Program-made: the position numbers and the translations under genes
The notes under the pieces: generated by a model
What the model saw: only the letters and a program-made list of their open reading frames with translations
Database searches by the model: none
What the model was told of the DNA's origin: nothing
Origin: Azolla caroliniana
Lineage: Eukaryota; Plantae; Polypodiophyta
Direction of reading: 5' to 3'
Assembly: GCA_043228905.1 (NCBI GenBank)
Contig: JBHGNT010000059.1
Span: 97,030-161,029 of the forward strand
Length of the DNA: 64,000 bases
Part shown: in pieces, positions 3,006 through 55,970 of the stretch
Position numbering within the stretch: position 1 is the stretch's first letter
Layout of the letters: every line of letters starts with the position of its first letter

Positions 3006-3027
3006 AGAGGCGGCAGAAGAGCAGAAG

Positions 3028-8633: not shown

Positions 8634-8703
8634 AGACGGGCCGGTTTTCTCCGTCCCAACTCTCTGGCGCATACCGGAGGATGCGCGGTTAGGTGGGGGC
8701 GGA

Positions 8704-20713: not shown

Positions 20714-20784
20714 GCATAGGGCAAGATTCGAACCTTGCACCTCCATGTTAATAATGTAATGTCTTACCATTACACTAGCATTTC
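20714..20784 (-). other. tRNA-like module (Pol III A-box/B-box) inside LTR; also at ~23647-23717, 26571-26641, 27304-27374
   Basis: Minus strand reads ...TAGTGTAATGGTAAGACAT...GCAAGGTTCGAATCTTGC: A-box with D-arm, T-arm with GTTCGAAT; acceptor stem does not pair. Confidence 0.6.
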
Positions 20785-21524
20785 ATTAGTGTTAAAGTAT
20801 AGATGTCCCACATAGAAAGGTAAATTCACGCTAGGATAAACATTAGAAAAACGCATAACAAAAGAAAAAGCTACACATACACATCTAGCGTGCATGATAA
20901 AAAACGCACAAGTTAGAAAAAGCATGATCACTTTAGATAAAGCATATAGTCTATCTATAGGAAAAGCATGAGCACTATATTTAGCAAATAAAAGCAAGGA
21001 TTAGAAAAGCATCACATGCACATTTAGTGTGCATGAACATATTAGAAAAAAAGCATGTAGCTATGCTTAGTCTCTCCCATCACTACATAAGGATGGGGAG
21101 CACAATGTAATAGGTGTGTGAAAAATATTTGGGAAATTGGATATATTTCCTAAAACACCAATTAATATAATCGTGGGATTCACGAAGTTTTATATAATCT
21201 ATCTCTTTCAATCTAAATTCATATTCTTACATAATTATTGATTAATGTAATACTTGTGGGATTCACAAGGTTTGATCTCTTTTCTATTTCTACTCTAAAC
21301 TATTCTAAACTATATCAATTTATTACTATGATTAGTACAAACTAAAACAACTCTACTTGTGGGATTCACAAGCTTCTAATAATCTATACATAATTAAAAT
21401 CACCTCAAATTCTTCCTCTTCCTAGTCCAAAACCCCAGCGGTTCCCACCCAACTCACGCAACGATCCGGAGCCGAAAGGCACGACACAGTTGGTGAACCC
21501 GACGTGAAGACGGGTGGCAAGGAG

Positions 21525-23546
21525 ATGGAGAATCAACAAGAGGCGATGAACATGATGATGATAATGTTTGAGCGGATGCAACAAGAACAACGTGCGATGT
21601 CGGAGATGAAGGCGGCAGTAGAGCGGCTTCTGCGACGAAACGGGGAATTCAACGGTAAGGGTGTGTCACGCTACCTACGTGAATATAAGGCGGAGATGAT
21701 GCAATATCGGATACCGGAAGGATTGCAAGTGATATCCTTTAGTCGGGTGGCCTCGGATGAACTACAAGAGAGAATCCACAAGATACAACAACAAAACTCG
21801 ACATGGGAGTCCTTTGAAGAAGCTTTACGGGAGGCATATGACTATGAGAGATGGACGGGACGAGATCGACGAGAATTCGACGAATGGGTGGCGTCGGAGA
21901 AGACTCACCGAAGTGCAACGCAAGCGTTCCTAGAGTTCGAGCATCGTTTTGCTCGACTCTCGGAGCGGAAACGACGATTGGTGGGAGAAGATAAAGTCTT
22001 AATGTTCGTAAGATCGATCGATCGGAAAGAAAGGATGGACATTGGGATCAAACTCGAAGATGATGACGGTGCGAACGGCCTTACCGAGGATTGGGCCAAA
22101 GTCGAAAGGGTATGCCGAAGACATGATGAAAGGAAGCTGAGAATCTCGTCAACAACGACATGGCCCATGAAGGATGGTCGATTGAGGAAAAACGATGAAG
22201 CCAATATGAAGGCCGAAATACAACATGATGGTACCACGGGAGAAAGAGTGGAACAAGACACCCACTCGTCTTGTGAAAGAACGATGGCGAAGGATAAGGC
22301 CGATAATTCAAGTGTAGAAGGAAATTTCGGGATACAAGTGCCCGAGACATCGGGTCAAAAAGGGGTAAGCATAATAGATGTTTGCATAATTGATGCAGAT
22401 AAAGAGTGTGAAGCGGATGTGATTAAGGAGGTAGCCACAAAAGACGAAATCGAATCGGAGGTGGCTATGGACGAATCAATGGCGGATTGCCATATCGAGA
22501 CTTCCCCACCACTGATTCCAGAGACTCCGGCGGTTGCGATCGAAAGGCAACGTGAGACCGAAGAGACGGAAGGTGGCGGAGAGAAAACGAATGTCGAAGC
22601 CGACGAATACGATGAAGAGATAGCCGAGAAGAATGCTAAGGGTGAAACTACGAAAGAAGGTAATACCGAGGATTCATGCCAACAATATCTAGAGACTTCG
22701 TCGGTTGTGTCCGAGAACCAACGTGAGACCGGAGAGACGGGAGATGACGGCGAGGAAGGTAAAGTCGGAAGTCGGTTCGGATGGAAAATGATCCATCCGA
22801 AATTCCAATCTAAAAGAAAGTGCGACAATGCGGAGGTCGGGTCTACGACGGGAGAAGCGCGTAATACAGAGCATGCTCTACGGCGAATAAAGAAACGCGT
22901 GTTATTGCGAATAAAGAAGCACGCGCTACGGCGAGAAAAGAAGCATGCATTACAACCACACGAGGACCGAACAACGAGCACATATCGGAGGACCTACGTG
23001 GCGAACAACGGAAAGAAGTGCCGAAAGTCGAACCGAACAAGGCAGGTGAAAACGAAGAAAAGAAAGCAAATCCGGACGAAAAGAAAAGAAAAGAAACCGA
23101 CCCGAAAGAGCACTGAATCGGTAAAAACCGATCAACCGAGTCCGGATCGACCGAATACAAATCGGAAAGGAAGCCGAACTAAACGAAAGACGATCCGACG
23201 AGACCGAATCGGAAGTAAGCTAATCCGACTAAACCGAAAATCCGAAAAGAAGTCGAGATTGATGAAGAAAAGAAAGAGGGCAAGAAAAGATACTACCGCG
23301 GATGACAAGGACCAAGCGGGCCATGCAAAAAGCGAACGAAGACTATGGTGGATCGGATGTCGACAATGGTTCGGGTGGAAAGAATGGATGTGCTCCAAAT
23401 GGAGAGACAAAGTCAACATAACAAGAGAAGTCGAGGGTACTACGAGCCGGCAACGAAACCAATCGGGTAGAGACCGGACGGAGGAGACTAACAAACACCA
23501 ACAACTTCGGCACATACCGGAGAATGTGCGGGTTTGGAGGGGGTGA
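21525..23546 (+). CDS. Gag-derived protein with acidic, basic and Trp-rich C-terminal extension (variant A)
   Basis: N-terminus aligns by eye to the gag at 3028 (GEFNGKGVSRYLREYKAEM vs GRFDGRDATKYLASYGAEM; GLTEDWAKVERVC vs GLTTDWAAVKKVC); no CCHC or protease. Confidence 0.8.
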   Translation: MENQQEAMNMMMIMFERMQQEQRAMSEMKAAVERLLRRNGEFNGKGVSRYLREYKAEMMQYRIPEGLQVISFSRVASDELQERIHKIQQQNSTWESFEEALREAYDYERWTGRDRREFDEWVASEKTHRSATQAFLEFEHRFARLSERKRRLVGEDKVLMFVRSIDRKERMDIGIKLEDDDGANGLTEDWAKVERVCRRHDERKLRISSTTTWPMKDGRLRKNDEANMKAEIQHDGTTGERVEQDTHSSCERTMAKDKADNSSVEGNFGIQVPETSGQKGVSIIDVCIIDADKECEADVIKEVATKDEIESEVAMDESMADCHIETSPPLIPETPAVAIERQRETEETEGGGEKTNVEADEYDEEIAEKNAKGETTKEGNTEDSCQQYLETSSVVSENQRETGETGDDGEEGKVGSRFGWKMIHPKFQSKRKCDNAEVGSTTGEARNTEHALRRIKKRVLLRIKKHALRREKKHALQPHEDRTTSTYRRTYVANNGKKCRKSNRTRQVKTKKRKQIRTKRKEKKPTRKSTESVKTDQPSPDRPNTNRKGSRTKRKTIRRDRIGSKLIRLNRKSEKKSRLMKKRKRARKDTTADDKDQAGHAKSERRLWWIGCRQWFGWKEWMCSKWRDKVNITREVEGTTSRQRNQSGRDRTEETNKHQQLRHIPENVRVWRG

Positions 23547-24765
23547 GTGTCGTAGTGTATTTTGTACACTACGTGAAAAACGTATATAGTATTAGATTCA
23601 ATAAAAAATGAAGAAATAGAAGAAAATAGCAAAATAAATGGAACATGCATAGGGCAAGATTCGAACCTTGCACCTCCATGTTAATAATGTAATGTCTTAC
23701 CATTACACTAGCATTTCATTAGTGTTAAAGTATAGATGTCCCACATAGAAAGGTAAATTCACGCTAGGATAAACATTAGAAAAACGCATAACAAAAGAAA
23801 AAGCTACACATACACATCTAGCGTGCATGATAAAAAACGCACAAGTTAGAAAAAGCATGATCACTTTAGATAAAGCATATAGTCTATCTATAGGAAAAGC
23901 ATGAGCACTATATTTAGCAAATAAAAGCAAGGATTAGAAAAGCATCACATGCACATTTAGTGTGCATGAACATATTAGAAAAAAAGCATGTAGCTATGCT
24001 TAGTCTCTCCCATCACTACATAAGGATGGGGAGCACAATGTAATAGGTGTGTGAAAAATATTTGGGAAATTGGATATATTTCCTAAAACACCAATTAATA
24101 TAATCGTGGGATTCACGAAGTTTTATATAATCTATCTCTTTCAATCTAAATTCATATTCTTACATAATTATTGATTAATGTAATACTTGTGGGATTCACA
24201 AGGTTTGATCTCTTTTCTATTTCTACTCTAAACTATTCTAAACTATATCAATTTATTACTATGATTAGTACAAACTAAAACAACTCTACTTGTGGGATTC
24301 ACAAGCTTCTAATAATCTATACATAATTAAAATCACCTCAAATTCTTCCTCTTCCTAGTCCAAAACCCCAGCGGTTCCCACCCAACTCACGCAACGATCC
24401 GGAGCCGAAAGGCACGAGAAGCACAATGTAATTGTGTGTGAAAAATATTTGGAAACTGGATATGTTTCTAAAAAACACCAATTAATAAACTATACTCGTG
24501 GGATTCACGAGGATTCTATATCATTCTCTTTCAACCGAAGTTTATATTCTTATATTCATATTGATTAATCTAATACAATACACTCGTGGGATTCACGAGT
24601 TTGCTATAACTCTTTCTTACAACATATTTATATTCTTATTAGCCTTAAAACTCTCCTCTTCCTAGTCCAAAACCCCAGCGGTTCCCACCCGACTCACGCA
24701 AACGATCCGGAGCCGAAAGGCACGACACAGTTGGTGAACCCGACGTGAAGACGGGTGGCAAGGAG

Positions 24766-26412
24766 ATGGAGAATCAACAAGAGGCGATGAACATGATGAT
24801 GATAATGTTTGAGCGGATGCAACAAGAACAACGTGCGATGTCGGAGATGAAGGCGGCAGTAGAGCGGCTTCTGCGACGAAACGGGGAATTCAACGGTAAG
24901 GGTGTGTCACGCTACCTACGTGAATATAAGGCGGAGATGATGCAATATCGGATACCGGAAGGATTGCAAGTGATATCCTTTAGTCGGGTGGCCTCGGACG
25001 AACTACAAGAGAGAATCCACAAGATACAACAACAAAACTCGACATGGGAGTCCTTTGAAGAAGCTTTACGGGAGGCATATGACTATGAGAGATGGACGGG
25101 ACGAGATCGACGAGAATTCGACGAATGGGTGGCGTCGGAGAAGACTCACCGAAGTGCAACGCAAGCGTTCCTAGAGTTCGAGCATCGTTTTGCTCGACTC
25201 TCGGAGCGGGAACGAAGATTGGTGGGAGAAGATAAAGTCTTAATGTTCGTAAGATCGATCGATCGGAAAGAAAGGATGGACATTGGGATCGAACTCGAAG
25301 ATGATGACGGTGCGAACGGCCTTACCGAGGATTGGGCTAAAGTCGAAAGGGTATGCCAAAGACATGATGAAAGGAAGCTGAGAATCTCGTCAACAACGAC
25401 ATGGCCCATGAAGGATGGTCGATTGAGGAAAAACGATGAAGCCAATATGAAGGCCGAAATACAACATGATGGTACCACGGGAGAAAGAGTGGAACAAGAC
25501 ACCCACTCGTCTTGTGAAAGAACGATGGCGAAGGATAAGGCCGATAATTCAAGTGTAGAAGGAAATTTCGGGATACAAGTGCCCGAGACATCGGGTCAAA
25601 AAGGGGTAAGCATAATAGATGTTTGCATAATTGATGCAGATAAAGAGTGTGAAGCGGATGTGATTAAGGAGGTAGCCACAAAAGACGAAATCGAATCGGA
25701 GGTGGCTATGGACGAATCAATGGCGGATTGCCATATCGAGACTTCCCCACCACTGATTCCAGAGACTCCAGCGGTTGCGTTCGAAAGGCAACGTGAGACC
25801 GAAGAGACGGAAGGTGGCGGAGAGAAAACAAAGGTCGAAGTCGATGCATACGACGGAGAGATAGCCGAGAATATGGCTATGGGTGAAACAATGGAGGATG
25901 ATAATACCGAGGATTCCTACCCACTAATTCTAGAGACTTCGGCGGTTGTATTCGAGAACCAACGTGAGACCGGAGAGACAGGAGGTGGCGGCAAGAAAGG
26001 TAAAGTCGGAAGCCGGTTCGGATGGAAGGTGATCCGGACAGGATTCCGATCCGAAAGAAAGCCAACCGAAACCGAAAGCGATAGATCGAAACCGGGCCGG
26101 AAGGAGACCGACTCAATCGAAACCGAACAACCGATTCCGATTCGGCCGAATACGAATCCGATCAGAAGCCGATCAAACCGAAAGTCGATCGGACGAGAGC
26201 GATCCGGAAAAAAGTCAAGGTTGATGAAGACAAGAAAGAGGCCAGTAAAAGACACTACCACGAATGACAAGGGCCAAGAATATGACGAGAGAGAACAAAG
26301 AATATGGTGGATCGGATGGCGACAATGGTTCGGGTGGAAAGAATGGGTCTACTCAAAATGGAGAGACAAAGTTGACATAGCGGGACAAACAGAGGATGAA
26401 GGAGGAGACTAA
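24766..26412 (+). CDS. Gag-derived protein (variant B, shorter C-terminus)
   Basis: First ~360 aa almost identical to variant A, diverged afterwards, but retains WWIGWRQWFGWKEW..SKWRDK. Confidence 0.8.
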   Translation: MENQQEAMNMMMIMFERMQQEQRAMSEMKAAVERLLRRNGEFNGKGVSRYLREYKAEMMQYRIPEGLQVISFSRVASDELQERIHKIQQQNSTWESFEEALREAYDYERWTGRDRREFDEWVASEKTHRSATQAFLEFEHRFARLSERERRLVGEDKVLMFVRSIDRKERMDIGIELEDDDGANGLTEDWAKVERVCQRHDERKLRISSTTTWPMKDGRLRKNDEANMKAEIQHDGTTGERVEQDTHSSCERTMAKDKADNSSVEGNFGIQVPETSGQKGVSIIDVCIIDADKECEADVIKEVATKDEIESEVAMDESMADCHIETSPPLIPETPAVAFERQRETEETEGGGEKTKVEVDAYDGEIAENMAMGETMEDDNTEDSYPLILETSAVVFENQRETGETGGGGKKGKVGSRFGWKVIRTGFRSERKPTETESDRSKPGRKETDSIETEQPIPIRPNTNPIRSRSNRKSIGRERSGKKSRLMKTRKRPVKDTTTNDKGQEYDEREQRIWWIGWRQWFGWKEWVYSKWRDKVDIAGQTEDEGGD

Positions 26413-28560
26413 CAAACACCAACAACTTCGGCACATACCGGAGGATGTGCGGGTTTGGAGGGGGTGAGTGTCGTAGTGTATTTTGTACACTACGTGAAAA
26501 ACGTATATAGTATTAGATTCAATAAAAAAAAATGAAGAAATAGAAGAAAATAGCAAAATAAATGGAACATGCATAGGGCAAGATTCGAACCTTGCACCTC
26601 CATGTTAATAATGTAATGTCTTACCATTACACTAGCATTTCATTAGTGTTAAAGCATAGATGTCCCACATAGAAAGATAAATTCACGCTAGGATAAACAT
26701 TAGAAAAACGCATAACAAAAGAAAAAGCTACACATACACATCTAGCGTGCATGATAAAAAACGCACAAGTTAGAAAAAAGCATGATCACTTTAGATAAAG
26801 CATATAGTCTATCTATAGGAAAAGCATGGGGTCTATAGTTAGAGAAAAAGCATGGATTACTAAGACTTCCTCATCACTACATAAGGATGGGAAGCACAAT
26901 GTAATTGTGTGTGAAAAATATTTGGAAACTGGATATGTTTCTAAAAAACACCAATTAATAAACTATACTCGTGGGATTCACGAGGATTCTATATCATTCT
27001 CTTTCAACCGAAGTTTATATTCTTATATTCATATTGATTAATCTAATACAATACACTCGTGGGATTCACGAGTTTGCTATAACTCTTTCTTACAACATAT
27101 TTATATTCTTATTAGCCTTAAAACTCTCCTCTTCCTAGTCCAAAACCCCAGCGGTTCCCACCCGACTCACGCAAACGATCCGGAGCCGAAAGGCACGACA
27201 CAAGTGTCGTAGTGTATTTTGTACACTACGTGAAAAACGTATATAGTATTAGATTCAATAAAAAATGAAGAAATAGAAGAAAATAGCAAAATAAATGGAA
27301 CATGCATAGGGCAAGATTCGAACCTTGCACCTCCATGTTAATAATATAATGTCTTACCATTACACTAGCATTTCATTAGTGTTAAAGCATAGATGTCCCA
27401 CATAGAAAGGTAAATTCACGCTAGGATAAACATTAGAAAAACGCATAACAAAAGAAAAAGCTACACATACACATCTAGCGTGCATGATAAAAAACGCACA
27501 AGTTAGAAAAAGCACGATCACTTTAGATAAAGCATATAGTCTATCTATAGGAAAAGCATGGGGTCTATAGTTAGAGAAAAAGCATGGATTACTAAGACTT
27601 CCTCATCACTACATAAGGATGGGGAGCACAATGTAATTGTGTGTGAGAAATATTTGGAAATTGGATATATTTCCGAAAACACCAACCGATTAATATAATC
27701 GTGGGATTCACGAAAATAATATAATCTATACTTGTGGGATTCACAAGTTTCTTATATCTTTCTTTCAATCTAAATACATATTCTTATCTAAATATTGATT
27801 AATCGAATACAATACACTCGTGGGATTCACGAGATTCTTATCTTATAACTCTTTATACCTATTGTTTACTAGCCTTATTTGTATTTTTCTTCCTCCTAGT
27901 CCAAAACCTCGGCGGTTCCCACCCGACTCACGCAAACGATCCGGAGCCGAAAGGCACGACACAGTTGGTGAACCCGACGTGATTACAAGATCCGTCGTCG
28001 TTGTGGACGCTGCAACCACCGGAGGAATATGAAGGTGGCACCATTCAAGGACAACATTTCTAGGTGAAACATGCGTGGGTTGGTTGGTTCACACGATGAT
28101 GAAAATGGTAGATAGACATGGTAATGTCATGTGGAATCATGTTTGTAGTAGGAGTTACGATCAGCCACTACTATTGCGCACATCATGGTACGGCGAGACA
28201 CGGCATTGTATGAGGGTGGCTTCAATACAACATTGTGATGGCATCGACGTTTGACGAGTTTCGCGTTGCTCGTGAGAGAGATAGCGATAGATGGATAGCG
28301 ATAGATATAGGTAGGGTGGGAGTGGGTAGTGTGCGTGTGGGCACGTTACCTAATCATGTGTGCGTGGAGTTTCATTTTGCTTGTGCAATGAGCGAGCGAG
28401 GGCACGCGACCTGATCGTGCGTGCGTGCGTGCGTGTTGTGCGCGAGCGTGGGAGAAATATGATTGAGAGGGTTATGAGAACGTCAAGACACCACACAGAG
28501 CACACCATTTACATTTACGATGTTCAGAAAGTGTATAGTTGAAAAAGTTATGTACGTTCT

Positions 28561-31837: not shown

Positions 31838-33267
31838 TGCTTGTGTTCGGAACTACCCCGGTTCTCTCTCCGCCTATTTGAGCGTGTCATGGTTGATCCA
31901 CCCTTATATACACAAGGCCATGCATGTCTAGTACATGCATGTCCCTTCCCACGTCCATTCCTATAGACGTTAATGGCATGATCCATACTTGGGCCACGGA
32001 AGAGACCATTCACTTTTCACCACCCCCCTTTACGTGTCCAGGATCCTCCTGCTTCGACCTACCATATCACTAGCCCTATACTCACCTCCATCACACCAGG
32101 AGTGGGATTATGCACTTGGGCATTTCAAATCTACTAACCTATGGACGCTTCGTCCATATTGCAACGTAGACAGTATGTAACCTCATGATAGCCACCTACA
32201 CATGTGATGCCATTGAGGTTGTAGAGTGCGTATGGGCCTCGTAAAACGAGGATAAGGTGGTGAGAAAAGGTTTTTAGGGTGTTGGTTCTCTCCACGAAAA
32301 CGTGCTCGGTGGTTGTGGCCACGAGGGAGTTTAGAATCCATTGCGACCAACATACGGACGACGACACGCGTTTTCATTGTGATTACAAGATCCGTCGTCG
32401 TTGTGGACGCTGCAACCACCGGAGGAATATGAAGGTGGCACCATTCAAGGACAACATTTCTAGGTGAAACATGCGTGGGTTGGTTGGTTCACACGATGAT
32501 GAAAATGGTAGATAGACATGGGAATGTCATGTGGAATCATGTTTGTAGTAGGAGTTACGATCAGCCACTACTATTGCGCACATCATGGTACGGCGAGACA
32601 CGGCATTGTATGAGGGTGGCTTCAATACAACATTGTGATGGCATCGACGTTTGACGAGTTTCGCGTTGCTCGTGAGAGAGATAGCGATAGATGGATAGCG
32701 ATAGATATAGGTAGGGTGGGAATGGGTAGTGTGCGTGTGGGCACGTTACCTAATCATGTGTGCGTGGAGTTTCATTTTGCTTGTGCAATGAGCGAGCGAG
32801 GGCACGCGACTTGATCGTGCGTGCGTGCGTGCGTGCGTGTTGTGCGCGAGCGTGGGAGAAATATGATTGAGAGGGTTATGAGAACGTCAAGACACCACAC
32901 AGAGCACACCATTTGGGTGAAAGCATGCGAGTGGAAACAATTAGCTATGTCCTTGACATAGCTAATTAGCTATGCAAAAAGCTACCATTGATAAATAGTC
33001 ATTTTAGTAAAAAGCCATCATGAATAAATTAAGTATGCAAAAAACTACCATTGAAAATACTAGAGTGTTTTAATTACATATGTAAATGAGTGCCATAAAT
33101 GTGCAACATAAATTGATGTGTGCACCATAAATGTGTACCATAAATTATATATCGAATTCCTAGGGCCATTATGCATGATCCTTTGCCACATCACGTTGGC
33201 CATCTCTAGTTGAGTACTGTGGGTTAGTTGCTACCACTGTTGCTAAACCCTATCGAGTCCACCTGCC

Positions 33268-34010
33268 GCCACTCTACACTGAGGGGCTGCTACTGTGCGT
33301 TCCAAGCATCATCAAAGAGCTGCTCAATCTGACGGGGTTCTCTTCTCTGTGACACTCTACACTCAGGGGCCACTACTGTGCATTCCAAGCATCATCAAAG
33401 AGTTGTTCAATCTGACGGGGTTCTCTTCTCTGTGCCACTCTACACTCAGGGGCCATTACTGTGCGTTCCAAGCATCATCAAAGAGCTGTTCAATCTGAGG
33501 GGGTTCTCTTCTCTGTGCCACTCTACACTCAGGGGCCATTACTGTGCGTTCCAAGCATCATCAAAGAGCTGTTCAATCTGAGGGGGTTCTCTTCTCTATG
33601 CCACTCTACACTCAGGGGCCGCTGCTGTGCGTTCCAAGCATCATCAAAGAGCTGTTCAATCTGACGGGGTTCTCTTCTCTTTGCCACTCTACACTCAGGG
33701 GTTGCTACTGTGCGTTCCAAGCATAATCAAAGAGCTATTCAATCTGACGGGGTTCTCTTCTCTTTTCCACTCTCACTCAGGGGCCGCTACTGTGCGTTTC
33801 AAGCATCATTGGTAACTGTTCAATCTGACGGGGTTCTCTTCTCTTTTCCACTCTCACTCAGGGGCCGCTACTGTGCGTTTCAAGCATCATTGGTAACTGT
33901 TCAATCTGACGGGGTTCTCTTCTCTATGCCACTCTATTCTCAAGTGCCTTCTATGTGCGTTTCAAGCATCATCGGTAACTGTTCAATCTGACGGGGTTCT
34001 CTCCTCCATT
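33268..34010. repeat. 83/81-bp tandem minisatellite (~9 copies) upstream of the transposase
   Basis: CCACTCTACACTCAGGGGCC...CAAGCATCATCAAAGAGCTGTTCAATCTGACGGGGTTCTCTTCTCT recurs with 83-bp period (ORF echoes at 33295, 33378, 33461, 33544, 33627, 33710). Confidence 0.92.
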
Positions 34011-34337
34011 GCCATCATTCTATACTCAGTTGCCACTACTGTCCAGTCCCGGATTGCTTCCACATTTCGATTTGACGGAGTTCACTCATCCAACGGCAAC
34101 ATTCTACACTCAGTTGTTGCCATTGGTCGGTCTTGGATCGCCTCCTCAACTGTTGGATCCAACAGAGTGAAATCCTCTACTGTTCGGTCTTGGATTGCAA
34201 TAACTTTTCTGTCTATTGATTATCTTGTGTATTGTTGTGTCTAATCTTGTGTATTGTGTGGAATATTTTTGTGTATTGTTGTTGCCCATAGCCATCTTTA
34301 ATACTTGTTTTTTTTTCTGGAAATTTAGGGTTTTAAC

Positions 34338-37300
34338 ATGTCTAGCCAAATGGAAGGGGAAGAAGGGTGTTTAGAATTACCCCTCAATGATCATAAGGAT
34401 AGGGATGATGTTATCAGGACACAACAAGCCATACGAAACTATTGGGCAGAAAAAAAAAGGAAACATCGTCAATTGTTGAAGGATACGAAAGCCACACTCA
34501 GTAAAGGTAAGGATAGTTTAGCTGAGAATGTAAGTAATGCGACTACCATCATAGAGAGAAAGGTTGTAGACTATTTCAATGTTCAAACCAAGCACATCAG
34601 CAATGAAGAAAAGAAGGTAGTACTTTATGGAATATGTAATGATCCATCGATAAAGGACTTAGTTGATTGTGATGGTCTTAATGCAAACATATCATCTATT
34701 TTAGTAAATAATCTTCGTAATAGTTTCGTATCCATGAGCAGGTCAGAAGATGATCTTGTCTTAAAAAGGTCTAGTCTAATGATGTTACTTAATAGTGATG
34801 TTGACGATATAAACATCAGTGAGCTATCTAAGGTAATTGGTGTTAGTAGAAAAACAGTGTACAATACAATGAACCGTATAATTTCCTCGGGTGAAGGAAC
34901 TAGTCTACTAAAGCTAACTACAAGATGTAAGCCAATGACACCCATAACATTTGAAATCAAGGATGTAATCACAATGTTTTGGACTAATGAGAGTAGGGTT
35001 TCACCCAATAAAAAGGATTTATGCAGGAAACGTGTTGGAAGAAATCAATACGAGGAGCATCCCATTCATCTTCTTGATGTACCTCAGGTATTTACATTTA
35101 TCTCAACATTTGTTTTGACTCTACTCGGAAAGTTAATTAGCTCAGTTAGCAGAAAAGCTAATTAGCTTATCAGATACATTTACCTCAGTTAGCTACTAGG
35201 ATCGCTACTACATAGGTAACTAGCTACTCTCAATAGTTACTACCATGATAGCTAATTAGATATTCTCAATAGCTAATTTAGGTACTACCAGATAATTAGC
35301 TGTACTGCTAGCTAGTTAGCTATTTCGTTATTACCAGCTAATTAGCTACTAGGAAAGCTAATTAGCTACCATGATAGCTAATTAGCTACTATGATAGCTA
35401 CTACATAGGTAACTGGCTACTCTCAATAGCTACTACCATGATAGCTAATTAGTTAGGATAGCTAATTAGCCACCATTATGGCTAATTAGCTACTAGACCA
35501 GCTAATTAGCTACTATACCAGCTAATTAGCTACCATGATAGCTAATTAGTTACTAGGAAAGCTAATCAGCCACCATTATAGCTAATTAGCTACTAGACCA
35601 GCTAATTAGCTACCACGATAGCTAATTAGCTACTAGACTAGCTAATTAGCTACCATGATAGCTAATTAGTTACTAGGAAAGCTAATTAGCCACCATGATA
35701 GCTAATTAGCTAGTAGACAAGCTAATTAGCCACCATGATAGCTAATTAGCTACTAGGACAACTAATTAGCTACTAGGACAGCTAATTAGCTACCATGATA
35801 GCTAATTAGCTACTACGACAGCTAATTAGCTACCATGATAGCTAATTAGCTACTAGAATAGCTAATTAGCTACTAGAATAGCTAATTAGCTACCATGATA
35901 GCTAATTAGCTACTACGACAGCTAATTAGCTACCATGATAGCTAATTAGCTACTACGACAGCTAATTAGCTACCATGATAGCTAATTAGCTACTAGAATA
36001 GCTAATTAGCTACCATGATAGCTAATTAGCTACCATGATAGCTAATTAGCTACTACGACAGCTAATTAGCTACCATGATAGCTAATTAGCTACTAGGACA
36101 ACCAATTAGCTACTAGGACAGCTAATTAGCTACCACGACAGCTAATTAGCTACTACGACAGCTAATTAGCTACCATGATAGCTAATTAGCTACTAGAATA
36201 GCTAATTAGCTACCATGATAGCTAATTAGCTACTACGACAGCTAATTAACTACCATGATAGCTAATTAGCTACTAGGACAACTAATTAGCAACCATGATA
36301 GCTAATTAGCTACTAGAATAGCTAACTAGCTACTAGAATAGCTAACTAGCTACTAGAATAGCTAATTAGCTACTAGGATAGTTAGCTAGTTACGAGAATA
36401 ACTAATTCCCCTTTATTACGCAGGTCGATTTATTTATTAGGTTCAAACGAATGCATCCAACTATCAAAGTTCAACTACGAACATTCGAGTCTCTTAAGCC
36501 ACACTTTGTGAGACGCTTAAAGGATCGATACACATGTTGTTGCATTTACCATGTACAGATGGGTTTTCTGAAGGACTCTGTTAATCTACTACGTCACCAT
36601 AGCGCATCCCTAACTAATACAGTTTGCACATGTGGGTGCCAAATCTGTCGATCAAGCCCGCAAGAGGAGTGTAAATCATCTGAGCACGTTATCTCTTCCA
36701 TGAGTTATTTATTAGATTCAATATTGTGTCCGAGAGAATCTGACGCTATCTTCCATATTCATAAATGTGTCATGGGTTTATGTCAAGATTGTGGCCCTAC
36801 TAGATTTAGGTGGTGTCCAAATGAATTGAGTAGTGAAATATTGATCTCTGTGAAGTTATTTGAGTCAGTGAACACCAATTTCGAAGGAAAGGTGTGTAAA
36901 AGAAAGGATCTAGTTCGGAAGATGCTTAAACCAAGGGATTTGGTGTCTCTGTTTGTAGTATCTCTAGGAAAGTTCATTAAACACAACTTCATTTATTCAT
37001 GGCAGGCCCATCAGTTTAAGACTTGCATATCTGATTTCCCAAATGATGTAGTAGTCTCAGTAGTAGATTTCGCAGAGAATTATACTTTCAAGCAGCAGAA
37101 TGAAATTCAATCTATGCATTGGTGTTCAGTTCAGGTAACCATTTTTGTGCACATAACATATTTTCGAGTTTCAGGTGATGTTAAAAAAGTAATTCATTTC
37201 TTTATTTCCGATGATAAGAAGCATGATACCTTGTTCGTCCAACACTGTTTTAAGTTACATTGGCAGTGGTTATTAGCTCAACGTTTGGAGCTTACTCAAC

Positions 37301-38265
37301 ATTGGGTCTGGTCTGACGGAGCTGCGTCACAATTCAAGGCTCGACGTCCATTTTATTTTGTGGGGAGGTATCCTGCTATAACAGGTTTGGAGATGAGATG
37401 GAATTTTTTTGGGTCTGGCCATGGTAAAGGTGAACATGATGGTGCAGGGGCTGTTATAAAGCGGGCACTTACCCATGAACAACTAAAGACAGATGGTGTG
37501 CACATGAATTGTGCATCACATGTAGTTGAATTTTTAAGAACAAATATGTCGACGAGTGCCACAGGTGTTTATTCCTCGCAAGTTCGAGATATCAAACGTG
37601 AATTTTGGGAAGTGAAGATAGATGAAGTAAATAGGGAGAAGACCTGGGAGTGCCAAGGAATTCCCGAATTGCGATCTCTACATGCTGTTCGCGGTTATTC
37701 CAGGTTCGATGGTCATTGTATTGCGGTTAGAGAATTGACTTGTTTTTGCTTCCATTGTGTGCAGGGAAATTGGAGATATTGTCTAAACAAAGCATACATT
37801 CAGAATTGGGAGTATCACACTCTGAATGATAAGGAAGCAGTTGATGGAGAAACAGGGCAGAATGCTGACTTCACATATGAGGGACTTGGAGATACTTTGA
37901 GTGATGTCCTGAACGTTGGGGATAACTTCGCTGTAAATGCTGAAGAAGGCAATTCAGAGGGTGCTAATTTCTATATATTAAAGTGCACGGTTAGTAAACA
38001 GTGTGCAAGGCAGAATATTGTAGATGCATGGGGAAATTTTGTATCTGCCGGTACATTCTACATCGAAGGCATTTTTTATGCAAAACTAGATGACTACGAA
38101 TATGTGTACAGGCTGTTAGAAGACAAACCAGCGGCGTATATGTACTCTCATTTGGTCAGATGCATCAACGTCCCAATGTCAGAATACAATAGCTGCTCCG
38201 GTTTATACACTGTTGGTGCTAATGTGTATGAATGTATTTACAATAGTATGCCATGGAATTTGTAG
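34338..38265 (+). CDS. Sola2-like DDD transposase, two exons (34338-35087, 36424-38265), ~863 aa
   Basis: Motifs VDFAENY..QNEIQSMHW, WSDGAASQFK, FFGSGHGKGEHDGAG, Cys-rich regions, N-terminal HTH-like ISELSKVIGVSRKTVYN; phase-0 intron CAG|GTATTT...TTACGCAG|GTC joins the ORFs in frame. Confidence 0.8.
35140..36400. repeat. ~20-bp satellite built on palindrome AGCTAATTAGCT filling the transposase intron
   Basis: Dozens of units GCTAATTAGC-TACCATGATA / -TACTAGAATA / -TACTACGACA. Confidence 0.95.
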
Positions 38266-38740
38266 CTACAAGTAGCACTTACCATGTTCTCTTGTAAAAC
38301 AAACATGTATTTCGCGAAAACAGATCAATAAATTCGTTTGGAATCAATTTCTTGTATACAGTCTGCTTTCTGTGCTTCTTTCTCAATAAAATCATGTCTT
38401 TTTTGTTAAGTTTTAAGTTATAAGTTATAGCGAAATAGTCATCAGTAGCTAATTAGCTGTACAAATGAAGCTAATTAGCTGTACAAATGTATTTACAATA
38501 GTATGCCATGGAATTTGTAGCTACAAGTAGCACTTACCATGTTCTCTTGTAAAACAAACATGTATTTCGCGAAAACAGATCAATAAATTCGTTTGGAATC
38601 AATTTCTTGTATACAGTCTGCTTTCTGTGCTTCTTTCTCAATAAAATCATGTCTTTTTTGTTAAGTTTTAAGTTATAAGTTATAGCGAAATAGTCATCAG
38701 TAGCTAATTAGCTGTACAAATGCAGCTAATTAGCTGTACA
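38231..38740. repeat. ~255-bp tandem duplication of the transposase 3' end/UTR
   Basis: AATGTATTTACAATAGTATGCCATGG...TAGCTAATTAGCTGTACAAATG occurs at ~38231 and ~38486. Confidence 0.9.
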
Positions 38741-38889
38741 AATGCAGCTAATTAGCTGTCAATAGCTAAATAGTCATCAATAGAATGAAATCAACAATCT
38801 GCAACATATTCCTCAAATTACACAGTAGATAAGTACAGTGGGAACAAGTAATTAAATTCTTCATTGAATAATGTCATCTCTTTACATAT

Positions 38890-40024
38890 TTATAAATTAC
38901 CATTGGAAATGTCTACAAATCTCCTATAAACAGCTAAGCTCTTGCTAGTCAGTGGAACGAGTCTACATATATTATCCGCATATTGAGCTCGGTATGGAGT
39001 CCACAACCATGCACCTAGTTGGCAGCTCACTGTTTGCACCAGGTACTGTTCAGGCATTTCCTCGGGTAGAATGAGACAGCATCTCCGAATATTGAAGTAG
39101 TGTCGGAAATGTTCTGTATCCAAAATCAATGTATTGTCAGCATTATATTCAGGCCAAGTAGCCCAAAAATCAGAAAGCCTCTTGAATCTTGCAGCTTCCA
39201 TCTGCTCACAATTTTCTCGTGCCCATTGACCTTTAAAACGACTTTGCCATTTTGGGAAGAATCTTGCCAAACACTTCCACACATCTGATTTTGGTTTTTC
39301 ACTCCAAATAAACAAATCGAAGTACTCCGCAGCCCACTCTAGAAACTGATTTGCGTCCCTCCTTGGCTGCATATATCTCACACTCATCAAGACTTTATCC
39401 AGCTCCAAGATCAAGGCTCTTCGCTCGACTTCTAGTGGTTTAGGTTTCCATTCCTGAAACTGAGCCGCTGTTACACCATTTTCTGGTAGGATACGATCAA
39501 TCTCAATCAGCTCAGGTTCGGCTGACACAACTGGTGTCCTTTTTCCTCTTTAAACCCCTAGTCGACTGTGTTGGGCCTAGCTTCACATTCTGGTGCTCTT
39601 GTTTTGTCGACTTAGTTATCAATCCTTGGATTATCTGAGTGCATGTAGCTACTGTTCTGCTCGATATCAATCCACTGGTATCACATGCTGCATCTACCTG
39701 CAACACCAAGTCATCCGTGCTACATGCTGCATCTACCTGCAACACCAAGTCATCCGTGCTACATGCTGCATCTACCTGCAACACCAAGTCATCCGTGCTA
39801 CATGCTTGATCAACTTGTGTGACCAGATCACTTGTGTCAGTTGCTACATCTACTTTCAAGATGGGGCCCTTTAAACATGCCGCAACATCAACAGTATCCA
39901 CACTGCCATTGGCCTTACGAGCAATAGAATCAAACCCTTTAGACTCTGCAACATCAGAAAACACCAACATATTCACACTCACAAAGTAACTACTAGTCTC
40001 ACAAAACAATATCCTGAACATCAA
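38890..40024 (-). CDS. Transposon cargo: 13-aa-repeat region + FCP1/NIF-like (HAD) phosphatase-like domain; split by an apparent 1-bp frameshift at 39540-39544
   Basis: ALILELDKVL...RRDANQFLEWAAEYFDLFIWS...NTLILDT..RHYFN resembles the FCP1-homology fold with degenerate DxDxT; upstream VLQVDAACSTDDL repeats; start uncertain. Confidence 0.6.
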
Positions 40025-40194
40025 AGAGTTTCAGTCATAGAACAACACTCTTCAAATTATCTTGGAAAAACATCATAGAGTTCCATTACATAATGTGGAT
40101 CAAGCAACAACCAATCTGAGGTTTTACTTGTCCAACAGGATAGTAAAACTTCATAAAACCCTAGCAAAATCCCTAAGCTAACAATCATATCCAA

Positions 40195-43100
40195 CTAAAC
40201 AGTATTTCGCTCCACTACGTCTGGGCCCCTTGACCGAGTAACTGGTCTTGTTCCCGATCGCGGCCCCTTCTTCAGCCTTTTTCTGGTTGGTTCCCCATTT
40301 AGCCTTGCTTCTAGGACCCAATGCGCAAGTGTGTCCTCCTCCGACAACCTTCCCATCGCCTCAGCAGCTAATTGCACATCAGCTGTTTCTTGAACTAGCT
40401 TTTCAAGTACAGAGGGATCTGTTTGGACATTTTCAGTAGTTGGGCTCGGTGGGGTGGAATCAAGGTCTTGAGACTCGAAGAAATGTTGCATCAAGTGTTC
40501 ATAAACACTGTTGTTGTGAACCTCAATTTTACATGTTGTTTCCACTATTTCATGGCATTTCACATCGTTGCCTAATTCAGTACACTGTTCCAAAAGAATA
40601 GGGTGCAGCTGATCTGAAGGAGATGTGATAACAGGACTCTTACTTTCAGCCACATTGGCAGTAGTATCCTCATCTGTCGCAGCATCATCAGCACCAGACA
40701 CATCATGTGCCGTCCTTAATCCACAAGATTCTACAATAACATGACAGTTATTTAGGATAGCTAATTAACTACTTTACTAAACTATGGTAGAAGCTAGGAT
40801 AGCTAATTAGCTAGTATGATAGCTAATTAGGTACTTTACTCAACTATGGTAGTAGTTAGGATAGCTAATTAGGTACTTTACTCAACTATGGTAGTAGTTA
40901 GGATAGCTTATTAGCTACTAGGACAGCTAATTAGCTGCCAGTAGCTAATTAGCTACTAGGATAGCTAATTAGCTGCCAGTAGCTAATTAGCTACTAGGAT
41001 AGCTTATTAGCTACTTTCCACAACTATGGCAGTAGCTACTAGGATAGCTAATTCGCTAGTAGGATAGCTAATTAGTTGCCAGCAGCTAATTAGCTACTAG
41101 GATAGCTAATTAGCTACTAGGATAGCTAATTAGTTGCCAGTAGCTAATTAGCTAGTAGGATAGCTAATTAGGTACTTTACTCAACTATGGTAGTAGCTAA
41201 TTAGCTAGTAGGATAGCTAATTAGCTACTTTACTCAACTATGGTAGTAGCTAATTAGCTAGTAGGATAGCTAATTAGCTACTAGGATAGCTAATTAGCTG
41301 CTAGTAGCTAATTAGCTACTAGGATAGCTTATTAGCTACTTTACACAACTATGGCAGTAGCTAATTAGTTACTAGGATAGCTAATTAGTTGCCAGTGGCT
41401 AATTAGCTAGTAGGATACCTAATTAGCTTTTTTACACAACTATAGTACTAGCTAATTAGCTAGTACCATAGCTAATTACCTACTAGGATAGCTAATTAGC
41501 TAGTAGGATAGCTTATTAGCTACTTTACACAACTATAGTAGTAGCTAGGATAGCTAATTAGCTACTATGGTAGCTAATTAGCTACTTTACTCAACTATGG
41601 TAGTAGCTAGGATAGCTAATTAGCTACTTTACTAACTATGGTAGTAGCTAGGATAGCTAATTAGCTACTTTATTAACTATGGTGGTAGCTAGGATACCTA
41701 ATTAGCTACAATGAAAGCTAATTAGCTACTTTCTCAACTATGTAGTAGCTAGGATAGCTTATTAGCTACTAGGACAGCTAATTAGCTGCCAGTAGCTAAT
41801 TAGCTACTAGGATAGCTTATTAGCTACTTTACACAACTATGTCAGTAGCTAATTAGCTACTATGATAGCTAATTAGCTAGTAGGATAGCTAATTAGCTAG
41901 TAGGATAGCTAATTAGCTAGTAGGATAGATAATTAGTTGCCAGTAGCTAATTAGCTAGTAGGATAGCTAATTAGCTTTTTTACACAACTATGGTACTAGC
42001 TAATTAGCTAGTACCATAGCTAACTAGCTACTAGGATAGCTTATTAGCTACTTTACACAACTATGTCAGTAGCTAATTAGCTACTATGATAGCTAATTAG
42101 CTAGTAGGATAGCTAATTAGTTGCCAGTAGCTAATTAGCTAGTAGGATAGCTAATTAGCTTTTTTACACAACTATGGTACTAGCTAATTAGCTAGTACCA
42201 TAGCTAACTAGCTACTAGGATAGCTTATTAGCTACTTTACACAACTATGTCAATAGCTAATTAGCTACTATGATAGCTAATTAGCTAGTAGGATAGCTAA
42301 TTAGTTGCCAGTAGCTAATTAGCTAGTAGGATAGCTAATTAGCTTTTTTACACAACTATGGTACTAGCTAATTAGCTAGTACCATAGCTAACTAGCTACT
42401 AGGATAGCTTATTAGCTACTTTACACAACTATGGCAGTAGCTAATTAGTTACTAGGATAGCTAATTAGTTGCCAGTGGCTAATTAGCTAGTAGGATAGCT
42501 ATTTAGCTTTTTTACACAACTATGGTACTAGCTAATTAGCTAGTACCATAGCTAATTAGCTACTAGGATAGCTAATTAGCTAGTAGCTCATTAGCTGCCA
42601 GTAGCTAATTAGCTAGTAGGATAGCTAATTAGAAAAGACTAAGCTTATTAGCTACAGTATGGTATACCTGTTTGTTTTCTCCACTCATTTGGTAGAGTTG
42701 TACTGCAATCTCCCAAACAGAATGCAGCAATTCGACAGGCATGTTGAAAACAAAGCAGATGGTATGTGTGGTTGCATGGTTGTAGGTGAACCAACAAAGA
42801 CGCAGTTTTGTCCTCCACACCTAACCCGCAAGCGATGCAACGTGCTTGAACTGTCAATAAATCATTTTCTGGTTCTACTTCATTTGGTAAGGGAGCAAGA
42901 ATGTTCAGGTCCAAATCCTGTCTGGTCCTTACCATTCCCTCCACAAAATGTAGCTTCTTCTTAAGGCAGCTAACTAACTGTTCTTGATGAATGTATTGTT
43001 CCTTCAACGCAACAGAGAAATTTACCGATTAATTATTCTTGTTGTTGAAAGATACACCAACTTTGCTCAGGAATCGTTAACTTACTTGAAGCTTATCCAA

Positions 43101-43989
43101 ATTGTAATCTGCAACAGTATTTACACCTAGAAGGTTCAGGTTCATTGAAAGAACCTGGATCTCTATTTGCAGTTCTATTTTACGCTGGGGATCCAGTGGC
43201 CCCTCTAATTCAAGCTCCTGTTGCGCAACCTATTCCAGATAATGCTTGATTAGCACATTTTACCTGTTATTTATAACACAATCACATACCAGCAAAACAA
43301 TAGTTACCTGAATCTTATTTCTAATTGTTGTAACAACAGAAGTAACTTCGCTCTCCATTGCAGAAGCCATTGTGGCTTTCTCTAAATCAGTCTTAAAAAA
43401 TGCCAATGTCTCACAGGCTTCATGGACATTTTTTAGCATATAGCTAACCAATGTCTCACCTGTATCATCGACATTGGCTTTCCTTGGGTGTCGGTGTGGT
43501 GTATGCCCCCGGTCTTGCTGGGAGTCGGCAGTTGCATCAACAGCTGCCATGCTCCAAAATCTGTCTATTTTTTGTGCCAAGGTCCCCATCTTTCGGCATC
43601 TTTTTACCGATGCCTCACCATAGACTGCCCAAGCTACCCTATACATTTCAGGGTCTCTAGATTCCTTCGCTCTTTTGCAGTACTCATATGCAAATGCTCT
43701 AGCAAATGAAACTGACAACTCATTGTTGACTAGGATCTCCTGATGAACTTTCTGGTGCAGCCTCATGCAGTCATCGTACAAGTCGGCTCGTACATGCTTC
43801 AGCTTGACCTTGCCTTTGACTCTAGGCACTGTATATACTGTCATCCAGTCTATATCACTGATCAATTTATCACTTAGGACAGCAGGGTCAACACCCTCGA
43901 GTGACAGACCATAGGTGTTGTGGAAGTCCTCCTTTGTCTCGCAAAATTTTGCGAAGTTTAGCACTCTCGTATACGGAGGAACGAGCCAT
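40195..43989 (-). CDS. Transposon cargo: multi-exon RING-H2-like finger protein (exons 43308-43989, 43086-43217, 42668-43001, 40195-40730; 5' end uncertain), >=560 aa
   Basis: GT-AG introns of 90, 84 and 1937 bp keep one frame open; RING pattern CIAC..PCNHTYHLLC..CLGDC. Confidence 0.7.
40750..42650. repeat. AGCTAATTAGCT satellite filling the 1.9-kb intron of the RING gene
   Basis: Dense GCTAATTAGC units with TACTAGGATA / TTTACACAACTATGG spacers, including higher-order repeats. Confidence 0.95.
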
Positions 43990-44039
43990 CTGAAATATCA
44001 TTTCAGAAATCAGAAATAGTGCAAAATCAGAATATGTGA

Positions 44040-44450
44040 GAATCAAAAACCCCAATCAACAACAACAAAAATGGTGCAAAATCTTTAACTTAACCTAATC
44101 AAAATCTGTAATCAGAAGTTTGAAATCAGAAACCCTAATCAAAATCTGTAATCAGAAGTTTGTAACTAGAAACCTTATTCAGAAATTCTAATCAGAAATT
44201 TATAATCAAAAACCCTAATCAGAAATTTCAATCAGAAACCCTAATAAAAAATTTCAATCACAAACCCTAATCAGAAATCCTAAGCAGAAATTTATAAACA
44301 AAAACCCTATTCAGAAATTCTAATTTGTAATCAAAATTTGTAACCAGAAACCCTATTCAGAAATTCTAATCAGAAATTTATAATCAAAAACCCTAATCAG
44401 AAATTTCAATCACAAACCCTAATCAGAAATTTCAATCAAAAACCCTATTC
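44040..44450. repeat. AAACCCTAATCAGAAATT degenerate repeat (telo-box-like)
   Basis: Multiple AAACCCTA(A/T)TCAGAAATT units, probably inside a 5' intron of the RING gene. Confidence 0.75.
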
Positions 44451-45055
44451 ACTAAAGACAGGATTAAACACAAAAAAAGTAATATAAACACACCTGTTGC
44501 TACTCCCCGATTTGCGAGACATCCTTGTATGGGACTCCAAGGACTTCGCCCTATTCGATTTTGGGGAAATATGAATCGGCACCAAAGTTCACACAGTAGT
44601 CAAAAAGAAAAAACAAATGTTTGGGGTTTCTGTAACTGAAACATACCTGGACGATGATCGAGCGGGTTCTGTGTTGTAGCTCTCAATCTGCAATGTCGAT
44701 TTTTTGCTGTTGCGGGAGCTACGTCTGCGTTCGTGCTCTGAGTACTCCATCTGCGTTCAAAATCAGACTTAGGCTAAACAGGAAATTGATGACATTGAAG
44801 TCGACCTTAGATGATGGTGATATTCCCCAAGTTCCACTACGTCTGAAACAGAAGTTCAAATATTTGAGTTTTTTCATAAATTAGTTTTTCAAATATTTGA
44901 TTTTCCCACAAGAAAGACTAGCTAAACAAATAGCTAATTAGCTATGGCCATTTTAGTAGCTAATTAGCTATAATAGTGTTTCCACTCGCATGCTTTTACC
45001 CATTTACATTTACGATGTTCAGAAAGTGTATAGTTGAAAAAGTTATGTACGTTCT

Positions 45056-53643: not shown

Positions 53644-54017
53644 TGCTTGTGTTCGGAACTACTCCGGTTCTCTCTCCGCCTATTTGAGTGTGTCATGGGT
53701 GATCCACCCTTATATACACAAGGCCATGCATGTCTAGTACATGCATGTCCCTTCCCACGTCCATTCCTATAGACGTTAATGGCATGATCCATACTTGGGC
53801 CACGGAAGAGACCATTCACTTTTCACCACCGCCCTTTTGCGTGTCCAGGATCCTCCTGCTTTGACCTACCATATCACTAGCCCTATACTCACCTCCATCA
53901 CACCAGTAGTGGGATTATGCACTTGGGCATTTCAAATCTACTAACCTATGGACGCTTCGTCCATATTGCAACGTAGACAGTATGTAACCTCATGATGGCC
54001 ACCTACACATGTGATGC

Positions 54018-55831
54018 CAATGGATCTCCCGTACAATTTTTATGTGATTAGGGAAGCTCACACAATTTTGTGAATGATCGTTTGGTTCAGATATGGGGAA
54101 TCCAACCCACCGTAAGTGATCACACCTACACGGTGCACTTGGTTGATGGAAGAGTACAATACGTCAACGGGGCGATTCATTCATTAGGAATTTCTATTGA
54201 TACTTATATAGAGGAAGTAGACTTCCATGTAATGAATCTTCCATGAACGATTATACGCATTTTATTCAATGTGTAAAAAAACAATCCCTCTCGATTGTTT
54301 CTTTGTGTCCATCAATATCCGAGTTGTCTTGTTCTACGTTCTTTTATTGTGTACTTGATCCAGACATTCACGTTTACGATATCGATAATGTCCCGATTCA
54401 ATTAACATATTTTGAACAACAACAACTTGATGAAATCTTAAATGATTTTCATGATGTTTTTCCAAGTGAACTACCTGATGGGTTACCTCCTAAACGTAAT
54501 ATAGACCATCGTATAGATATTGTACCTGGTGTTGCACCAATAAGTATACCTCCGTATCGCTTAAGTCGATCCGAAGAAGATGAGGTATCTAAGCAACTCA
54601 AGGACTATTTACGAATGGGTTATATACGTTATAGTAAATCTCCATGGGGTGCACCCGTTCTCTTGGTTAAAAAGAAAGAGGGCACATGGCGTATGTGTAT
54701 TAATTATCGACGCTTGAATAAAGTGACGATCAAGAATTCGTATCCATTGCCCCGGGCTGATGATCTAATTGACCGTCTCCAGGGAGCTCGGTATTTTACG
54801 AAACTTGATCTCCGTACTGGCTACCATCAAATACGAATAAGTGAGGACGATGTTCCTAAAATGGCATTTCGTACGCGCTATGGCCATTACGAATTTTTGG
54901 TTATGCCTTTTGGTTTGACCAATGCTCCGGCTACTTCTCAACAAGAAATGAATGACATTTTCCAAGAACAACTTGGAAAATTTGTCGTTATTTTCTTGGA
55001 TGATATTTTAGTTTATAGCCGTACATTACAAGAACATGCTAGACATGTCCGCTTTGTTTTACAAACATTGCGTGACAAACAGTTTTATGCGAAGATCTCG
55101 AAATGTGAGTTCTTCAAGAAATCAATTACTTATCTAGGACATCTCATAACCGAACGAGGACTTGAAATTGATCCTTCTCGCATTGAGAAAATCAAGCATT
55201 GGCCCACTCTTCGGAATATTCGAGAAGTTCGATCATTCCTTGGTTTTGTGGGGTTTTTGCGAAAGTCTCTTCGTAATTACTGCCAATTGACGACGCCGTT
55301 TACTGATCTTTTAAAAGGTCAAACGCGTAAGTCTACAAAACCTATTGTGTGGAATGCTACACTAGACCTTGCCTTTAAGGAATTCAAGGACCTGGTTTGC
55401 AAGGCTCCTTCACTTCTTTTGAGGTTGAAACCGATGCAAGCGATTATGCTATAGGTGCTGTCTTATATCAAGATGGTAAACCAATAGCATTCGAGAGTAA
55501 GAAACTTGATTCTGCTCAATGTCGGTATACCGTTCAAGAAAAGGAATTATTCGCAGTTATACATGCGCTCAAAACATGGTGCCATTATCTTTATGGAAAT
55601 CACTTTGTGGTAACTACGGACCACGAGTCCTTGAAATATTTTCGTGACCAACAAGACCTGAAAGGTCGTAAGGCACGATGGGCTGATCTCATCCAGGACT
55701 TTGATTTCTCCATACGATATCGTAAAGGTTCCATGAACGCTGTCGCTGATGCACTAAGTCGCATCCGTGAAGTTAACATGTTTAGCTTCACTGCAATATC
55801 ATCAGATCTTTATGATCACCTTCGAGGAAAG
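54018..55831 (+). mobile_element. Inverted pol fragment (PR-RT-RH, frameshifted) of the chromovirus-type element
   Basis: ORFs 54243-55454 ([16 protein letters not shown]) and 55397-55873 ([12 protein letters not shown]); reverse-complement copy of ~57435-59343. Confidence 0.9.
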
Positions 55832-55970
55832 TTCACACTTGACATAATGGGTTGTCTCAATCCCGAGGATTAAAAGTAATCCTCCCCTTCTTTACACTCT
55901 CGTTTAACCCTCACACTTATCCACGTGTATAGAATACTACGGTAAATTCTTACCACGGGATATTATATGG

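Follow-up and report, generated by a model that had tools for sequence, protein, structure and literature searches.

Why are the two long introns of a transposon, which belong to genes on opposite strands, filled with the same palindrome? The question arises in a 64-kb stretch of Azolla caroliniana DNA (hereafter the window), where a Sola2-like DNA transposon of 12,087 bp (32915-45001) is inserted in a tandem array of host genes. The element carries a transposase gene on the forward strand and a convergent partner gene on the reverse strand, and the palindrome is the 12-mer AGCTAATTAGCT. We found that this word is confined to the non-coding parts of the element and that related elements carry words of their own. 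The comparison shows that the motif is family-specific: it changes jointly at the ends, in the introns and in the 3' spacer, against terminal 13 bp that do not vary. We favor the reading, at a probability of about 50%, that the arrays are amplified predicted binding sites for an element-encoded protein and act in self-activation or anti-silencing, as described for VANC and TnpA in Arabidopsis.

Distribution of the motif in the element

A search for AGCTAATTAGCT with at most one mismatch returned 137 matches, against 0.17 expected by chance, and chance was rejected as the source of the enrichment. All 137 matches lie inside the transposon: 1 at the left end, 52 in the transposase intron, 5 between the genes, 77 in the intron of the cargo (partner) gene, and 2 at the right end. 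The transposase exons, the 3' part of the cargo gene and 51.9 kb of host flanks contained none. These counts bear out a preliminary description of the locus, which had placed the palindrome next to the ends and between the convergent genes and had reported it missing from the host array. That description had also raised the question of a genome-wide satellite, for which the motif was counted in the flanks and in related loci; a captured satellite was rejected as the sole explanation. The motif-bearing features are as follows.

32941-32971: left subterminal module, consisting of a half-site TTAGCT, a 13-bp core ATGTC-N3-GACAT and then a full palindrome (32960-32971)
35088-36423, + strand: transposase intron, 1336 bp, GT-AG, phase 0; a 20-bp minisatellite on AGCTAATTAGCT (core 35336-36407, 53 copies)
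38447-38757: five exact palindromes, one every 22 bp, between the 3' ends of the two convergent genes
40731-42667, - strand: partner-gene intron, 1937 bp, GT-AG, phase 1, directly after the RING domain; 18-, 20-, 33- and 42-bp units on the same 12-mer
44932-44969: two exact palindromes, 26 bp apart, inside the right end

Both introns keep the frame across their GT-AG bounds, as had been proposed. They had also been described as almost entirely palindrome repeats; the arrays were confirmed, but the 12-mer occupies only about 50% of each intron, and the true unit is a 20-bp minisatellite in which the 12-mer is followed by a variable spacer of 6-8 bp. Spacings of 20 bp account for 48 of 55 intervals in the transposase intron and 43 of 78 in the partner-gene intron. 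Within the window, conservation is 0.95 for the motif versus 0.74 for the spacer (21 distinct of 46 units). Both arrays use related ACTAGGAT-type spacers that keep one genomic orientation whichever way the gene runs, which indicates that the arrays are homologous, one derived from the other or both from a common ancestor. The eight non-intronic sites have flanks that differ from the intron spacers, and the intergenic sites sit within a 255-bp duplication (38231-38744) with spacers unlike the intron units. The word rather than the repeat unit is what the ends, the 3' spacer and the introns share. Both arrays lie at least 2.2-2.4 kb from the nearest element end.

Two further properties of the introns were observed. 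The partner-gene array intron is nearly CpG-free (observed/expected 0.02); the rest of the element has values of 0.3-0.65, and the host array has 1.1-1.2. At 36395-36423, the degenerate last motif copy places CTAAT about 20 nt before the transposase acceptor, where it may act as a branch point.

Motifs of related elements

We collected 80 loci related to the transposase, many of them redundant copies; the named relatives come from a moss, a liverwort, ferns and conifers. Both sides of the intron junction are visible in 29 loci. An insert is missing in 11 and present at the same codon in 18, and 15 of these 18 begin with GT and end with AG, so that we take the transposase intron to be real by homology. 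Removing 35088-36423 yields an open reading frame (ORF) of 863 amino acids, and the spliced junction is collinear with continuous homologues (e.g., P0040, P0051, P0056 and P0085). Splicing of this intron is thus supported by homology, not RNA: contigs of sequencing runs X17, X18 and X19, guessed to be RNA, overlap exon parts but stop short of both array-intron junctions and are uninformative on expression and splicing. A run X1 contig has an array-type loose end at the partner-gene array intron.

Tandem Repeats Finder (TRF) detected an array in seven of the nine long introns scanned. The homologous intron contains arrays of GGTAATTAGT/CTAATAGTG in L002, of TGCTARYTAGCA in L004, of AGGTGAAA in L006, of GGTAC (a word common to both) in L007 and L008, and of TTCCTGA in L013; that of L030 is TGGA-rich. 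In L049 and L061, an AGTACT array lies in a second intron, and intron 1 is short (89 bp in L049) or unseen. Periods of 19-22 bp recur in L004, L008, L043 and L049. Array length, which the preliminary description had suggested comparing among copies, proved variable, with 1000 bp and 29 sites in L001 versus 1336 bp and 52 sites in the window element. Exclusion of the motif from exons and flank was also seen in L002 and L049, and the L006 motif occurs 27 times in the intron versus 4 times in exons. That several relatives fill introns with arrays of words of their own is the main new finding.

The left ends of relatives were located by their common start, GGGTnnnAGCA, which was found in L002, L006, L015, L028, L035, L047, L049, L073 and L078. 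The first 13 bp of the window element's left terminal inverted repeat (TIR) are kept at these ends. The subterminal core is identical and at the same register in L002 and near-identical in L006, each flanked by half-sites of the element's own motif. Behind the left end, L002 has ACTAATAGTGCT, L006 has AGGTGAAA and L049 has TTAGTACTA, which recur in their own introns in 10, 19 and 19 copies, respectively.

Covariation was assessed with an all-k-mer statistic, in which each left end (or 3' spacer) was scored against each intron, followed by permutation. For the left end, an element's own intron scored best in four of seven elements (permutation 5/5040) and, when the window element was left out, in three of six relatives (5/720). 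For the 3' spacer, again without the window element, the own intron was best in six of nine (62/100000); leaving out L008 as well gave seven of eight (2/100000). An earlier test on the top-5 k-mers with the window element included was also significant (6/5040 and 12/5040) but missed the second motif of L002; the all-k-mer statistic came after it.

The two genes, the element ends and the host locus

The remaining features of the element are listed below.

32911-32914: left target-site duplication, ATTT, from a pair found by a scan for TIRs and target-site duplications
32915-32939, + strand: left TIR, 25 bp, starting with GGGT, 24/25 identical to the right TIR
33268-34006: an unrelated 83-bp repeat, present nine times ahead of the transposase (TRF), with 0 palindrome sites
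34338-35087, + strand: transposase exon 1, 250 amino acids, with a helix-turn-helix (HTH) at about residues 147-186, a candidate motif binder (Pfam HTH_11, E 5.6e-5, just under the curated cut-off)
36424-38265, + strand: transposase exon 2, 613 amino acids, a Sola2-type core with invariant D465, D548 and D589 (numbering of the spliced protein)
38890-39549, - strand: 3' ORF of the partner gene with a NIF/FCP1-like domain (Pfam PF03031, E 1.8e-8; P0121)
39540-39544, - strand: frameshift in a homopolymer run that splits the linker ORF (39512-40030) from the NIF ORF; P0121 is continuous across it
40195-40730, - strand: partner exon 5, an acidic low-complexity linker (in-frame model)
42668-44750, - strand: partner exons 1-4 (44750-44647, 43989-43308, 43229-43086, 43001-42668) with a conserved N-domain, a helical region and RING
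44977-45001, - strand: right TIR, 25 bp
45002-45005: right target-site duplication, ATTT

The three aspartates of the transposase core are invariant across 38 sequences. The recognition helix of the HTH differs among relatives, and the HTH region is 32-46% identical to that of three relatives whose cores are 55-79% identical. The structure predicted for exon 1 was of low confidence (predicted local distance difference test, pLDDT, 42), and Pfam assigned no family to the transposase. Along 36424-38230, 1769 contigs of run X9 align at 85% or more, with many variants and internal deletions; this variety points to a large family in the organism of that run.

The preliminary description had called the partner a RING gene. 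Its array intron holds, but the label is incomplete: the gene has multiple exons and comprises an N-domain, RING and a NIF/FCP1-like domain. The five-exon in-frame model encodes 599 amino acids (N-domain, helical region and RING) and places the array intron 3' of RING. Because the downstream linker is poorly conserved, the acceptor at 40731 was placed by frame only. The other introns of the gene, including the 657-bp first intron, are free of the motif; that first intron (43990-44646) holds 13-, 40- and 53-bp repeats with nine AAACCCTA words, which we take to be telo-box-like, and no palindrome. In what we take to be a DxDxT-type motif of the NIF/FCP1-like ORF, the first Asp reads Glu. The frameshift is either a mutation or an assembly error, and a run X17 contig has a shorter homopolymer run at this position.

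A profile search with the N-domain/RING part returned 146 matches, and single proteins join the N-domain with RING and/or NIF (P0199, P0231, P0244, P0270 and P0283). In L004 and L006, a NIF end is turned toward the transposase. Weak N-domain or RING matches occur on the minus strand downstream of the transposase in the distant loci L013, L071, L012, L041 and L043, where the RING-alignment matches rest on seven alignment rows without the window row. On account of these matches, the gene is probably an old partner of the transposase rather than a recent capture. In Pfam, five pieces of the partner and 42 of the 146 relatives gave only RING, NIF or unrelated matches, and the N-domain structure was predicted with low confidence (pLDDT 45). 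In L002, small exon-like units in tandem duplication make up the convergent gene (7700-8892, minus strand), with TACTA-rich stretches between them.

The integration is marked by the empty site CACCATTTACATTTAC, which is present in sister units of the host array, eight of them upstream of the element and several downstream. At 986-2049 of L073 we observed a non-autonomous element of 1064 bp with the family's TIRs and an ATTT duplication. A blind scan of long distant loci for TIR pairs gave only noise apart from the window element's own pair. The element also carries unrelated 83-, 39-, 13- and 255-bp repeats (TRF), and L035 has a 53-bp repeat in the region corresponding to the 83-bp repeat. An Rfam search gave no match, and no relatives of the element were found in viral and prokaryotic collections. 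A prokaryotic promoter scan, irrelevant to a eukaryotic host, stayed at chance level.

The host array (window 206-53658) comprises at least 11 near-identical (96-99%) genes in units of about 2.2 kb. Each encodes a protein of about 360 amino acids with a signal peptide, rich in Arg, Glu and Asp, with a weak seed-storage/lipid-transfer protein match (E 8.6e-4); it is possibly a spore storage protein. Retrotransposon-like insertions lie in the array at approximately 2300-9300, 20000-28000 and 54000-61000 and include long gag- and pol-like ORFs at 2791-8633.

Possible roles of the arrays and known systems

The earlier proposal of a binding site amplified into intronic arrays gains indirect support from the covariation of the motif with the left end and the 3' spacer and from its higher conservation than the spacer. 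A joint change of the motif is the imprint expected if a binder had an evolving specificity. Tandem slippage and exchange between introns would amplify the site where coding sequence is unaffected, and the 20-bp period would set the sites on roughly one face of the helix. By analogy only, dense binding would then remove or block silencing marks, permitting transcription and transposition. The leading candidate for the binder, with an even chance, is the N-terminal HTH of the transposase, in line with the fixed position of the motif inside the ends, the speed at which the HTH region diverges, and the arrays of L002, which has no NIF end in the part covered. The conserved partner gene follows as a somewhat less probable candidate, suggested by its apparent long association with the transposase and by a VANC-like internal spread of sites; a host factor would be an unlikely binder.

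Several observations weigh against arrays bound by an element-encoded protein. TRF found no array in the long introns of L015 and L066, a short intron of about 90 bp is retained at the junction in six loci, and L002 has arrays but no NIF end in the part covered. The match between end and intron fails in L015, L028 and L078, three of the six relatives; of these, L028 and L078 are decayed elements, whereas the frame of L015 is open. Our first statistic missed L002, and the strict motifs of L002 and L006 have 0 matches in their own 3' spacers. The region limits were chosen by eye after the sequences had been viewed, the relatives are not phylogenetically independent, and copying within an element alone could account for some of the covariation. 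No Pfam match connects the partner gene with VANC, the gene is frameshifted in the window copy, and both the binding and the function of the arrays are inferred.

The arrays might instead be transposase binding sites with a role in the mechanics of transposition or in autoregulation (loading, pairing of the ends, or titration of excess transposase) rather than in anti-silencing. In the window element, L002 and L006, the motif keeps a fixed register just inside the TIR and surrounds a conserved 13-bp core, which would fit such a role, as would one or two full sites per end versus 52 and 77 inside. We consider it unlikely: the arrays are remote from the ends, the short two-ended element of L073 suggests that ends can suffice, and the spread over all non-coding parts matches the VANC pattern. 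Neutral minisatellites, in which intron slippage and within-element copying spread any word present and palindromes self-correct, seem quite unlikely. They would account for the spacers that the two arrays share in one orientation, the fast change in array length, the unrelated repeats in the same element and the relatives without arrays; however, the ends, spacer and introns share the motif only and not its flanks, different array words occur in at least six lineages and in four elements equal the word at the element's own end, and non-palindromic arrays exist.

The preliminary description had also offered a hairpin/siRNA source, and had argued that the motif, being palindromic, works in both oppositely oriented genes. 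Intron pieces of 400 nt fold far below shuffles in the window element (z -22.0 for the transposase, -28.7 for the partner; 12 shuffles each), the partner intron contains a 32-nt perfect reverse-complement word, and the arrays of L004, L006, L007 and L049 also fold (z -3.6 to -10.5). The arrays of L002, L013, L030 and L043, four of the eight relatives, fold no better than shuffles (z -0.8 to +3.4), and the longest RNA stack predicted in the window element's introns is 14-15 bp. Fold-back follows from the palindromic word of the window family itself and is not a conserved property; the long fold-back that would mark a hairpin/siRNA locus is not shared across the family. The arrays of L002, L013 and L043 are non-palindromic and directional, which runs counter to the two-orientation argument, and palindromy was rejected as a requirement. 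Fold-back RNAs giving small RNAs that regulate the element or host genes are accordingly improbable as the purpose of the introns, the more so as the motif also stands at the very ends of the element, which transcripts probably do not reach; a by-product of small RNAs is quite likely. The idea least in keeping with the data, to the point of being very improbable, is that a host transcription factor uses the arrays as enhancers, or that they are splicing signals. Both CTAAT and TAG are part of the word, TAATTA is similar to a homeodomain core, CTAAT is similar to a branch point, and a degenerate copy precedes the transposase acceptor; however, the words in the same intron of relatives are unrelated and lack CTAAT, and the motif also occurs outside introns.

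Sola2 termini read GRG. The group, part of the Sola DNA transposon superfamily, is said to have been described by Bao et al. 2009. By its protein motifs, target duplication and ends, the window element is assigned to Sola2. Its motif order (SR..P.KK, F..LRP, CxCxxH, DFAENY, Q.E.QS.HW, SDD..HD, SDG...Q.K, W.FF...HGKG..DG.G) was matched by eye to the alignment in the available portion of PMC3627910 (Additional file 10, part 1 of 2). An AT-rich 4-bp target duplication is likewise given there, consistent with ATTT and its empty sites, as are short TIRs starting with G: the window ends start with GGG, and the published amoebozoan ends (Additional file 11) also have G after the duplication. Sola2 elements can carry a second gene, namely Fanzor1 in amoebozoa (PMC3627910). 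In the plant lineage the transposase intron is conserved, as is the convergent N-domain/RING/NIF gene, and the motif arrays are family-specific; that portion of PMC3627910 describes none of these features. Nor is Sola2 marginal in plants: in a cypress genome it reportedly exceeds every other DNA-transposon superfamily in abundance, and fern genomes have also been noted to contain Sola elements. Full-text literature searches, which did not cover subscription journals, Repbase Reports or bioRxiv supplements, turned up no description of such arrays in the introns of Sola2. Transposons that counteract silencing in a sequence-specific manner are known from a few angiosperm cases, and PMC12973397 regards the evidence as limited to context-specific cases.

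A parallel is VANC21, whose 9-bp binding motif, according to the sections available of PMC5735166, has been amplified into tandem repeats that occupy introns, intergenic stretches and the termini; VANDAL motifs differ between related families (PMC5735166, PMC10398659). The window element is similar in its short family-specific motif, in tandem arrays over introns, intergenic and terminal parts, and in an accessory gene aboard. It differs in superfamily, and VANDAL elements are Mutator-like with degenerate TIRs (PMC10398659, same limit), whereas the window TIRs are intact. With its Sola2-type transposase and these TIRs, VANDAL membership was rejected; Pfam detected no VANC homology in the partner, a result that involved no direct comparison with a VANC sequence. 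En/Spm TnpA and the AtMu1 transposase act as sequence-specific activators of their own copies, in which they bind motif clusters, according to the available part of bioRxiv 10.64898/2026.08.24.746577. Clustered family-specific motifs that co-diversify with the element are common to both cases, and a transposase can itself be the binder, as AtMu1 shows. Binding and hypomethylation are at the termini there, whereas 129 of the 137 window sites are in internal introns; the window element has one or two full sites at each end. CACTA membership was rejected, since the element has GGGT termini and a 4-bp duplication versus CACTA termini and a 3-bp duplication. CACTA elements with internal tandem repeats or satellite arrays also place arrays inside a TIR element, but the accessible text of PMC8978399 reports no tie between array word and end word.

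Going further, we would tentatively suggest, as a doubtful extension, that Sola2 elements of seed-free plants run a sequence-specific self-recognition system independent in origin from VANC and TnpA. An ancient two-gene module (transposase and N-domain/RING/NIF partner) would coat its own introns via helically spaced, family-specific arrays, and the partner would rewrite chromatin or polymerase state on cognate copies; if so, the family would constitute a natural library of protein-motif pairs for targeted de-silencing. The relatives supply matched protein and predicted-motif pairs for studying binder-target co-evolution and which gene is the reader. If the favored reading is correct, the layout known from VANDAL and from TnpA and AtMu1 would recur in a third superfamily, in ferns and mosses to judge by the named relatives, and would be one that arises repeatedly.

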